A DNA stretch of 59,348 bases from Rhodocyclaceae bacterium (lineage in GTDB: Bacteria > Pseudomonadota > Gammaproteobacteria > Burkholderiales > Rhodocyclaceae), in the NCBI GenBank assembly GCA_036391735.1, contig DASVZI010000063.1, forward strand, positions 1-59,348, written 5' to 3'. Shown piece by piece: positions 41,855-43,070 of this stretch (positions are counted from its first letter, which is position 1; every line of letters begins with the position of its first letter). The notes under the pieces were generated by a model. The model searched no databases, was not told the DNA's origin, and saw nothing but the letters and a program-made list of their open reading frames with translations. Position numbers and translations under genes: made by a program.

Positions 41855-42301
41855 CTAGAGCCGAACGCCGGGGCCGCGCTGGCCCAGCATCAGGATGGCA
41901 TCGCGGTTGCTCCAGGAGAAGCATGCGGCCGCGGCGTCCCGCCACGGTAGCCAGCGGTAGGCCAGGTGCTCCTCGGGTGCGACCCGCACCGCGGCGCCGG
42001 GCGGCACGCAAAGGCCGAAGACGTGCTCGGTGTTGTGAGTGACACCTTCGCCGTAGCGATGCCGCCATTCGGCAAAGATCTCGAAGCGGTTGGACAGGCG
42101 CCAGTCCTCGAGGTCGCCGGCCGTCGCGACGATGCCGGTTTCCTCGGCCACTTCGCGCACGGCGGTCTCGGCCAGGCGCTCCGTTCCTTCCTGGCTCCCG
42201 GTGACCGATTGCCAGTAGCCGGGATGGGAGGCGCGCTCCAGCAGCAGGATCTCGAGCGCGGCGGTATGGACGACGACGAGGACGGAGACCGGCCGCTTCA
42301 C
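41855..42301 (-). CDS. nudB: NUDIX hydrolase (NudB-like)
   Basis: Nudix box [10 protein letters not shown]; GTG start overlapping barstar stop; E. coli has nudB next to aspS. Confidence 0.65.
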
Positions 42302-42744
42302 GGAATGTCGGGCAGCCAGTTGATGCCGTCGGCCTGCATTTCGACGAAGCACCAGAACGGGATGCCCTGTTCGCGCCAATCGTCGGCCACCTCCTCGAAG
42401 GTCTGCAGGGCGCCGACGAAGTCGCCCTCGGCGAGTCCGTGGATGCCGTCGCAATGCTGGAGGAGTACAAAGTAGCCGTCGGCCGGGCGCCAGGCCATGT
42501 CGGCGAGGCAATCGCCGAGTGCATCGAGGTTGTGGCCGAACCAGGCCGGAAAGGACATCGCCCGGCCGATGGCGTCCAGCAGGTCCATCTTGTCCTTCGC
42601 CTGCGCGAGATCGATGCGGAACACCGCGAAGCCGATGCCGGCGGCCGCCTCCATCAGCGGCTCGGGAGCCACCTGGGGCATGTGGTAGACGCCCGCTTTC
42701 GCGGTGTCGGAGAGGATGGCCCGGTAGTGGTCGAGTTCGCTCAT
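42298..42744 (-). CDS. barstar-family ribonuclease inhibitor
   Basis: FGHNLDALGDCLADM matches the barstar core YGENLDALWDCLTGW; 148 aa. Confidence 0.75.
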   Translation of the reverse strand: MSELDHYRAILSDTAKAGVYHMPQVAPEPLMEAAAGIGFAVFRIDLAQAKDKMDLLDAIGRAMSFPAWFGHNLDALGDCLADMAWRPADGYFVLLQHCDGIHGLAEGDFVGALQTFEEVADDWREQGIPFWCFVEMQADGINWLPDIP

Positions 42745-43070
42745 TCGCGGATGCGCAGGAAGCTGCGGTAATGATCGCCAGTGTAGTAGCGTTCCCCCCG
42801 GCTGCCGGCAATGATTCGCCGCGCCCCGCGATCGTACGCGCCGGGCGTCGGCACGGTGTATTCGCGGTAGTAGCCGCGCGGCTCTTCCGGCAGCCGGTGC
42901 TCGCGGTTGGCGAACACGACGCCGTCGCGGCGGTAGGGGAACGGGCCGCCGGCGTCGATGAGGCGCAGCGTGGTGCGCGCTTCCGGCGGAAGATCTGCGA
43001 TGGCGACGTCGCCAGCCGCCGCTGCCGTCGCCAGGAAGGCGAACAGCAGCGCAAGCAGGACGCGCATCAT
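42741..43070 (-). CDS. secreted barnase/binase-family guanyl-specific ribonuclease
   Basis: Signal peptide then FANREHRLP...YYREYTVPT...GARRIIAGS...TGDHYRSFLRI, paralleling barnase FSNREGKLP/WREADINY/RILYSS/TDHYQTFTKI with catalytic Glu and His; 4-nt overlap with barstar. Confidence 0.8.
   Translation of the reverse strand: MMRVLLALLFAFLATAAAAGDVAIADLPPEARTTLRLIDAGGPFPYRRDGVVFANREHRLPEEPRGYYREYTVPTPGAYDRGARRIIAGSRGERYYTGDHYRSFLRIRE

Follow-up and report, generated by a model that had tools for sequence, protein, structure and literature searches.

The 59,348-bp contig DASVZI010000063.1 of a Rhodocyclaceae metagenome-assembled genome (MAG; assembly GCA_036391735.1), referred to here as the window, carries two small genes between aspS and nudB that encode a predicted exported ribonuclease (RNase) and a barstar-family inhibitor. 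The genes of this row all lie on the minus strand and are listed below in the order in which they would be transcribed, together with the features discussed in the text.

44917..45651, minus strand: gene for a DUF502 membrane protein (PF04367, E 1.2e-35), 39 nt upstream of aspS
43078..44877, minus strand: aspS, aspartate--tRNA ligase (NCBIfam equivalog NF001750, 911 bits; Pfam tRNA-synt_2, GAD and OB domains)
42741..43070, minus strand: gene for an RNase Sa-type ribonuclease precursor of 109 aa (assigned through PF00545, E 4e-23)
43014..43070, minus strand: predicted Sec signal peptide, residues 1–19 of the RNase (MMRVLLALLFAFLATAAAA), followed by G20 (hydrophobicity heuristic and alignment boundary)
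42741..42744, minus strand: ATGA shared by the RNase and barstar genes (as stop and start, respectively), read directly
42298..42744, minus strand: gene for a barstar-family inhibitor of 148 aa (PF01337, E 1.3e-27)
42631..42744, minus strand: N-terminal extension of the inhibitor, residues 1–38, outside the Pfam match and absent from Bacillus barstar
42298..42301, minus strand: GTGA shared by the barstar and nudB genes (as stop and GTG start, respectively), read directly
41855..42301, minus strand: nudB, dihydroneopterin triphosphate diphosphatase of the NUDIX family, 148 aa, GTG start (NF006961; PF00293, E 5.5e-16)
40933..41817, minus strand: argB, acetylglutamate kinase (TIGR00761, 238 bits), 37 nt downstream of nudB

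The reading frames are tightly packed. Seven nucleotides separate the aspS stop codon (43080..43078) from the RNase ATG at 43070. The RNase frame ends with a TGA at 42743..42741, overlapping the inhibitor ATG at 42744, and the inhibitor frame ends with a TGA at 42300..42298, overlapping the start of nudB. An earlier note, made by a model from the letters of the window, had given these gene coordinates, overlaps and operon-like packing, and our reading of the minus strand agrees with it to the base. The NCBI annotation of the MAG contains the same two open reading frames (ORFs) with the same lengths, as “ribonuclease domain-containing protein” and “barstar family protein”. At 43076, a GTG in the same frame offers an alternative RNase start that would add two residues and is of no consequence. 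A longer RNase ORF of 143 aa, starting at 43172, was rejected because it overlaps aspS by 95 nt, and both NCBI and all homologues favor the short form.

Scans of positions 40800..46000 identified no sigma-70 promoter-like site, and from aspS to argB the minus strand is also free of intrinsic terminator-like sites, although scans of this kind are weak evidence and cannot define a transcription unit. The sole minus-strand terminator-like site (45864..45848) is located a long way upstream of aspS and is not part of the aspS-to-argB row. Based on the overlaps, the 7-nt gap and the lack of promoter- or terminator-like sites from aspS to argB, the four genes from aspS to nudB are most likely co-transcribed, with translation of the inhibitor coupled to that of the RNase and translation of nudB coupled to that of the inhibitor. 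Such coupling would ensure that the inhibitor is made whenever the RNase is made.

Both family assignments of the earlier note hold in a Pfam search, above the curated cut-offs. The RNase scores 82.2 bits against PF00545 (cut-off 24), with residues 21–107 covering profile positions 12–97 of 98, and the inhibitor scores 96.1 bits against PF01337 (cut-off 23.4), with residues 40–135 covering profile positions 2–96 of 96. Among all PDB sequences searched with phmmer, the best matches of the RNase are RNases Sa, Sa2 and Sa3 of Streptomyces aureofaciens, with E-values of ∼3e-30 to 9e-30 for RNase Sa and Sa3 and alignments that extend from residues 15–19 to residue 107. In contrast, barnase and binase are matched with E ∼1e-3 over the C-terminal 60 residues only. 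These alignments place the enzyme as an RNase Sa-type member of the microbial guanyl-specific N1/T1/barnase superfamily, so that the label “barnase-like” used in the earlier note is right at the level of the superfamily and too broad when taken narrowly.

The active site residues of RNase Sa have clear counterparts in the window enzyme. In RNase Sa, Glu54 is the general base and His85 the general acid, Arg65 and Arg69 form an arginine pair, and Tyr86 is adjacent to the histidine. Residues E70, R81, R85, H100 and Y101 of the window RNase align to E54, R65, R69, H85 and Y86 of RNase Sa, and all five are kept in 48 of 48 homologues from the clade that carries the pair (see below). The guanine loop N55-R56-E57 aligns to N39-R40-E41 of RNase Sa, while the clade homologues follow the pattern N-[RFYHL]-E. 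The N-R-E loop, the general base glutamate, the arginine pair and the His-Tyr pair are features common to RNases Sa, Sa2, Sa3 and the window enzyme. The motifs YYREYTVP and TGDHYRSFLRI, from which the earlier note had recognized a catalytic Glu/His context, are present, and that context stands in a proper alignment to RNase Sa and the 48 homologues.

The N-terminus of the RNase has the properties expected of a Sec signal peptide. It consists of an n-region with one arginine and a hydrophobic core of 16 residues, and ends with AAA followed by a glycine. The Kyte-Doolittle mean over 11 residues peaks at 3.1 for residues 4–14 and is below 0.4 from residue 20 onwards. The hydrophobicity collapses exactly where homology to mature RNase Sa sets in, at residue 19–20, and a hydrophobic N-terminus is found in all 48 clade homologues. 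The protein contains no cysteine and is, therefore, not a lipoprotein. A cysteine pair different from that of RNase Sa, placed on either side of the loop before YYT, is found in 16 of the 48 homologues and would suit an oxidizing compartment such as the periplasm. The computed isoelectric point (pI) of the mature enzyme is 9.5 (clade median 9.9). The hydrophobic N-terminus and the RNase domain account for the whole 109-aa protein, which has no translocation, receptor-binding, repeat or secretion-system domain, in keeping with the earlier remark that this is not a toxin-delivery locus.

The inhibitor is predicted to have the barstar fold, with a core of about residues 39–135. The AlphaFold2 model, built on the alignment of the 58 homologues mentioned below, is confident, with a predicted local distance difference test score (pLDDT) of 91.8 and a predicted TM-score (pTM) of 0.88, and all 24 top PDB matches of the model in a Foldseek search are barstar structures, with TM-scores on the target of 0.74–0.84 (mostly 0.80–0.84) and a root-mean-square deviation (rmsd) mostly of 2.3–2.7 Å, up to 3.3 Å, over ∼96 columns. 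In the PDB alignment, the inhibitor segment FPAWFGHNLDALGDCL pairs with barstar LPEYYGENLDALWDCL, NLDALGDCL aligns to barstar N33–L41, and W68, D74 and D78 are the equivalents of barstar Y29, D35 and D39. On this pairing, W68, D74 and D78 stand for the barstar residues that plug the RNase active site. The acidic DxxxD binding helix is kept, since D74, D78 and D82 are invariant in 58 inhibitor homologues and D74 and D78 are likewise kept across the clade loci. The core motif NLDALGDCLADM quoted in the earlier note is contained in the inhibitor and is borne out by both the barstar alignment and the conservation among these homologues. The inhibitor is acidic, with a computed pI of 4.3 (clade median 4.6), which complements the basic RNase. 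Its N-terminus is polar, is modeled as a helix and carries no export signal.

One striking feature of the inhibitor is its N-terminal extension. This region is modeled confidently by AlphaFold2 as a helix (residues 3–11), a strand (19–21) that joins the sheet as an extra strand, and a second helix (28–36). It is conserved in the clade, with L11, A17, G18, V19, Y20, H21, P23, A33 and A34 invariant or nearly so. An exhaustive phmmer search of 1.84 billion representative sequences matched the inhibitor to 2,630 proteins at E ≤ 1e-3 and to 545 at E ≤ 1e-10. In 128 of the best 150 matches, the alignment starts at or before residue 20, and these proteins are ∼130–155 aa long. The extended inhibitor thus appears from sequence to be a member of a large “long-form” subfamily and is not peculiar to the window. 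In BLASTP comparisons of the extension with two barstars described below, one linked to Rhs (135 aa) and one from Tsukamurella (101 aa), the core alone aligned.

To learn how the pair is distributed, the region downstream of aspS was inspected in 80 species-level genomes, namely those whose aspS is closest to that of the window (74–92% identity). The RNase–barstar–nudB trio follows aspS in about 50 of these species, including L028, whose divergent 131-aa barstar had been overlooked by tblastn. Loss of the barstar gene was considered for the loci scored without one and rejected, as L028 contains it and L029, L075, L021 and L044 stop at a contig edge. The carriers span at least the Rhodocyclaceae and Gallionellaceae (Methyloversatilis, Sulfuritalea, Dechloromonas/Azonexus, Accumulibacter, Proximibacter, Zoogloea, Pseudothauera, Gallionella, Sideroxydans and Nitrotoga) and form one large clade in a neighbor-joining tree of aspS. 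No trio was seen beside aspS in Uliginosibacterium (3 genomes), two Azoarcus MAGs and Tepidiphilus. A sister clade lacks the pair and comprises Hydrogenophaga, Rubrivivax, Leptothrix, Ideonella, Roseateles, Thiomonas, other Burkholderiaceae-type MAGs and a Hydrogenophilales MAG. Its one exception is L075, in which an RNase gene lies directly after aspS at the end of the contig. The DUF502 gene is a conserved neighbor upstream of aspS, found in 77 of the 80 loci, while the position of argB downstream of nudB varies.

The close packing of the trio is also general. Junctions were compared in 48 relatives' loci, in 36 of which the spacing from RNase to barstar is −4 or +1 to +4 nt. From barstar to nudB, the spacing is −4 or −1 nt in 23 loci, and the gap is at most 18 nt in a further 18. 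Additional genes are inserted between aspS and the RNase gene in Zoogloea-type genomes, and also in several other Rhodocyclaceae MAGs. These encode a protein of ∼540 aa with response-regulator receiver and TPR domains (L013 7924..9540, and similarly L011, L014–L016, L056 and L060), accompanied in L056 by a prolyl oligopeptidase. The RNase, barstar and nudB genes stay contiguous even when 1.8–4 kb separate them from aspS.

The pair separates two genes that are immediate neighbors elsewhere. As the earlier note had stated, E. coli aspS directly adjoins nudB, with an 8-nt overlap, and a direct aspS–nudB junction is also present in betaproteobacterial outgroups, with gaps of 21 nt in L064, 80 nt in L068 and 193 nt in L080. 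The earlier note had proposed a small insertion, and had held that universal presence of the pair at this site would argue against one. The pair is not universal in Betaproteobacteria, which indicates that it entered an older aspS–nudB junction; within the large carrier clade, it is near-universal and old. The notion of an insertion thus survives, although the pair is no islet of this genome, being shared by about 50 of the 80 species. Pairwise distances of all three genes co-vary with those of aspS (Mantel r of 0.39 for the RNase, 0.66 for the barstar and 0.45 for nudB; all p = 0.001). The GC content at third codon positions is 0.84 for the RNase gene and 0.89 for the barstar gene, compared to 0.87–0.92 for their neighbors, and a search for repeats around the pair that could be insertion scars gave only short, imperfect, GC-rich chance matches, with no flanking repeats. 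The native composition, the co-variation with aspS and the lack of flanking repeats support vertical inheritance. Based on these sequence comparisons, the insertion appears to be ancient, dating to the ancestor of the carrier clade, and to have been inherited vertically since. Near-universal in the clade, native in composition and free of flanking repeats, the pair is not a recently acquired islet.

Other genes are found at the same junction in relatives. A Phd/YefM antitoxin gene and a CcdB toxin gene lie between aspS and nudB in Rubrivivax- and Burkholderiales-type relatives (L067 7881..8487, L061 3438..4066 and L076 7839..8447), identified by Pfam in L067 (E 1.7e-9 and 1.6e-25) and by sequence similarity in L061 and L076. 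In three Burkholderiaceae-type relatives, the junction contains a gene for a CsgG-like lipoprotein of 260–270 aa (weak match, E 1.9e-7; L066 7807..8622, L073 7846..8649 and L079 7870..8655). A glyoxalase-family gene is present there in L059 and a tandem DUF1330 gene in L063. The aspS–nudB junction, thus, looks like a permissive landing site for small (two-gene) modules.

The RNase domain is rare on mobile elements. A tblastn search with the RNase against 50,697 phage records gave no match, and the same search against 72,556 plasmids returned 16 records, mostly megaplasmids or chromids, and one IncC backbone. The latter is the Citrobacter freundii plasmid pKHM-1 (NZ_AP014939.1; L085 779..3150), in which a PF00545 domain forms the end of an Rhs-repeat ORF that is at least 655 aa long and carries no annotation. 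This RNase tip is 49% identical to the window RNase, and its ORF shares 4 nt with the annotated gene for a 135-aa barstar family protein that follows. Related Enterobacter, Citrobacter and E. coli plasmids contain the same Rhs–RNase/barstar element. Elsewhere, RNase genes are found away from nudB as an RNase–barstar pair in Tsukamurella and as a lone RNase gene in Caballeronia. A scan with the anti-phage defense models of PADLOC-DB 2.0 found nothing for the RNase or the inhibitor, and nudB gave one weak match to a candidate family (E 4e-4, 18 bits).

RNase Sa and its relatives are the closest characterized enzymes. They are of similar size to the window RNase (∼90–96 aa when mature) and are secreted by an N-terminal signal, as predicted here. 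The streptomycete barstar homologue SaI14 is an inhibitor of RNases of this kind. RNase Sa is also neutralized by a barstar-type protein through the DxxxD helix, as in its complex with barstar (PDB 1AY7), and the window pair may work by analogy. Several differences are apparent. The window host is a diderm betaproteobacterium, so that a signal peptide leads to the periplasm. The enzyme lacks the C7–C96 disulfide of RNase Sa, which is a trait of the subgroup and does not define the superfamily, and is basic, whereas RNase Sa has a computed pI of ∼4.4. The window inhibitor gene shares an operon with the RNase gene and overlaps it by 4 nt; in the one Streptomyces locus inspected, L086, the translations downstream of the RNase gene showed nothing resembling barstar when read by eye, with no HMM (hidden Markov model) search. 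At 148 aa, the window inhibitor also has an N-terminal unit that is additional to the RNase Sa system.

The barnase–barstar system of Bacillus amyloliquefaciens, and likewise binase, belongs to the same superfamily and follows the same logic, with an exported basic RNase and an acidic cytoplasmic inhibitor that sits on the active site. The window inhibitor shares the fold of barstar and the equivalents of D35 and D39. In contrast, similarity between the two RNases is weak and restricted to the C-terminal half, and Bacillus barstar, with 89–90 aa, has no N-terminal extension. To our knowledge, the Bacillus barnase and barstar genes are not embedded in a tRNA-synthetase operon. A functional analogue in E. 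coli may be the periplasmic RNase I, of the T2 family, which degrades RNA broadly outside the cytoplasm and has a presumed role in salvage. RNase I is unrelated in fold and family and has no dedicated barstar-type inhibitor gene, and no homology is claimed.

Taken together, we consider it probable (about 80%) that the pair consists of an exported housekeeping RNase and a cytoplasmic inhibitor for self-protection, residing in the aspS–nudB operon and anciently fixed there by vertical inheritance. We infer export, activity outside the cytoplasm and inhibition by analogy with barnase–barstar and RNase Sa–barstar. The RNase precursor would be exported by Sec and cleaved after A19, and the mature enzyme would act outside the cytoplasm, in the periplasm and possibly beyond, as a guanyl-specific, metal-independent endoribonuclease. 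Guanyl-specific RNases of this type cleave via a 2',3'-cyclic phosphate intermediate. The inhibitor, signal-less and acidic, would remain in the cytoplasm and plug the active site of any RNase that folds before export, by means of its acidic helix (D74 and D78), in the way that barstar blocks barnase and RNase Sa. The arrangement would have arisen once, in the ancestor of the Rhodocyclaceae/Gallionellaceae part of Betaproteobacteria. The physiological role is most likely housekeeping RNA breakdown outside the cytoplasm, either for salvage of nucleotides or phosphate or for clearing RNA from the envelope or matrix, and not warfare, as suggested by the vertical inheritance, the single copy, the lack of a delivery domain and the rarity on mobile elements. 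Of the two roles offered in the earlier note, scavenging and interbacterial antagonism, the latter is the less likely, given the vertical inheritance and the lack of a delivery module and of polymorphism cassettes.

Several observations weigh against this interpretation or limit it. The signal peptide was called by a hydrophobicity heuristic and an alignment boundary, and not by a trained predictor. A Sec-type N-terminus in a diderm would bring the enzyme to the periplasm at most, with exit from the periplasm possible, so that the term “secreted” in the earlier note applies to the Sec-type N-terminus and goes too far if it means release from the cell. Simple self-protection leaves the conserved 38-aa extension of the inhibitor unexplained, and it does not explain the strict linkage to nudB, which persists when the trio is 1.8–4 kb away from aspS. 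A scavenging enzyme would more usually be regulated by starvation than be tied to a tRNA synthetase operon. The inhibitor evolves fast, with a mean pairwise p-distance of 0.64, compared to 0.37 for the RNase and 0.18 for aspS, which could also fit a conflict-driven pair. Our literature search found no paper describing an RNase/barstar pair in the aspS–nudB operon, nor one on proteobacterial RNase Sa-like enzymes specifically; in a looser search by clade names, the top 15 of 1,185 papers made no mention of barstar, which says little. No paper naming both barstar and nudB was found either.

The fast divergence of the inhibitor and the basic nature of the clade RNases are also compatible with an interbacterial toxin, released by the producer and entering competitors, with the barstar as the producer's immunity protein. 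The order of toxin then immunity gene matches the simple barnase–barstar gene pairs that have been placed at the base of polymorphic toxin systems and treated as incipient toxin–immunity systems, and the same survey gives Beta-proteobacteria, as well as export by Sec (“T2SS”), under Tox-Barnase (Zhang et al. 2012, PMC3482391). The Tox-Barnase/Imm-Barstar systems, of which the Rhs tip of pKHM-1 is an example, have the same two domains in the same order and with the same overlap of stop and start codons. Nevertheless, we regard a minimal bacteriocin-like or incipient polymorphic toxin pair as unlikely. The window pair has no Rhs, contact-dependent inhibition (CDI) or other delivery region, the RNase itself has no domain for translocation, receptor binding or secretion, and nothing points to a route into other cells, while a cytoplasmic inhibitor guards against an enzyme made by the cell itself. 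The pair is single-copy and non-polymorphic at a fixed locus in the 48 relatives, without cassette arrays or orphan cassettes, and the mobile-element searches turned up no phage copy and very few plasmid copies. Its vertical inheritance in a housekeeping operon contrasts with the sporadic, mobile distribution typical of conflict genes.

It is highly improbable that the pair acts in the cytoplasm as a toxin–antitoxin-like addiction or stress module, in which the N-terminus would not be an export signal and the RNase would cleave RNA in the producer upon depletion of the inhibitor, thereby tying RNA cleavage to expression of the aspS operon. The tight coupling of RNase and inhibitor in an operon that starts with a tRNA synthetase gene would agree with such a module, and the Phd/YefM–CcdB genes in L061, L067 and L076 demonstrate that toxin–antitoxin cargo does settle at this junction. 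However, the Sec-like N-terminus is present in 48 of 48 homologues with the homology to mature RNase Sa starting right behind it, and the cysteine pair in one third of the homologues is suited to the periplasm. In contrast to toxin–antitoxin systems of type II, the toxin gene comes first, and the inhibitor consists of the barstar domain and the N-terminal unit only, with no DNA-binding domain. Barstar-type inhibitors are, moreover, stable tight binders and not labile antitoxins.

The contiguity of RNase, barstar and nudB in 48 relatives, even behind the inserts in L011, L013–L016, L056 and L060, raises the question of whether the three products cooperate, for example with the Nudix enzyme processing some nucleotide that is linked to the guanylate products or with the N-terminal unit of the inhibitor contacting NudB. 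The linkage to nudB would then be functional and not historical. The distances of barstar and nudB are the best-correlated pair (Spearman 0.48), and the conserved extension would gain an explanation. We give this idea very little credence, as the adjacency of aspS and nudB in E. coli and the outgroups predates the pair, so that its landing site accounts for the linkage. NudB also scores as a standard dihydroneopterin triphosphate diphosphatase (NF006961, 205.8 bits, cut-off 103; residues 2–141, profile positions 6–147 of 151), an exported RNase and a cytoplasmic NudB would be in different compartments, and the RNase is separate from nudB in Tsukamurella, pKHM-1 and Caballeronia. The long-form inhibitor family is broad, judging by the 545 representatives at E ≤ 1e-10, a count from a sequence search that takes no account of gene context. 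We also consider it decidedly unlikely that the pair is a domesticated toxin–immunity module that has turned into a fixed housekeeping function of the whole clade, with RNase, barstar and NudB slaved as one unit to the aspS operon and the inhibitor extension adding a function that goes further than self-protection. Such a function might be, for example, binding of a second partner, control over when the RNase is released, or a connection to NudB or to nucleotide metabolism.

The surroundings of the row are ordinary conserved context. A prepilin peptidase gene (A24 domains) is located upstream on the same strand, within 45929..48034 (minus strand), and the ORF beyond it (46802..48034) corresponds by synteny with L082 to a gene for a T2SSF-type platform protein (PilC-like). 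The same synteny indicates that a Zn-ribbon and DUF502 gene pair adjoins aspS. Two small RNAs were matched elsewhere in the window at the Rfam gathering level. One is an anti-hemB small RNA (RF02837, 76 bits, E 4e-16) at 38461..38550 on the minus strand, ∼70 nt upstream of hemB (38623..39636, plus strand) and on the opposite strand to it. The other is a “Betaproteobacteria toxic small RNA” (RF02278, 62 bits, E 4e-10) at 55876..55941 on the plus strand.

Both protein families are textbook examples, the two genes are already correctly named in the public annotation, and this kind of system is known, so that little changes for the biology of the RNase or the inhibitor. The diderm host, the basic enzyme without a disulfide, the long-form inhibitor and the fixation in an operon of a tRNA synthetase and NudB set the pair apart from its characterized relatives, and its stay in this housekeeping operon across a large group of Betaproteobacteria is mildly unusual. 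The value of the finding is modest, and is evolutionary and ecological. A type of gene pair that is commonly grouped with conflict systems has stayed in a single position within a housekeeping operon in a range of genera, which argues for a routine RNA-degrading function outside the cytoplasm. Many of the carriers (Accumulibacter, Dechloromonas, Zoogloea, Sulfuritalea, Gallionella, Sideroxydans and Nitrotoga) matter in wastewater treatment and in iron and nitrogen cycling, and routine RNA degradation by these organisms could bear on the turnover of extracellular RNA and phosphate in sludge and biofilms.

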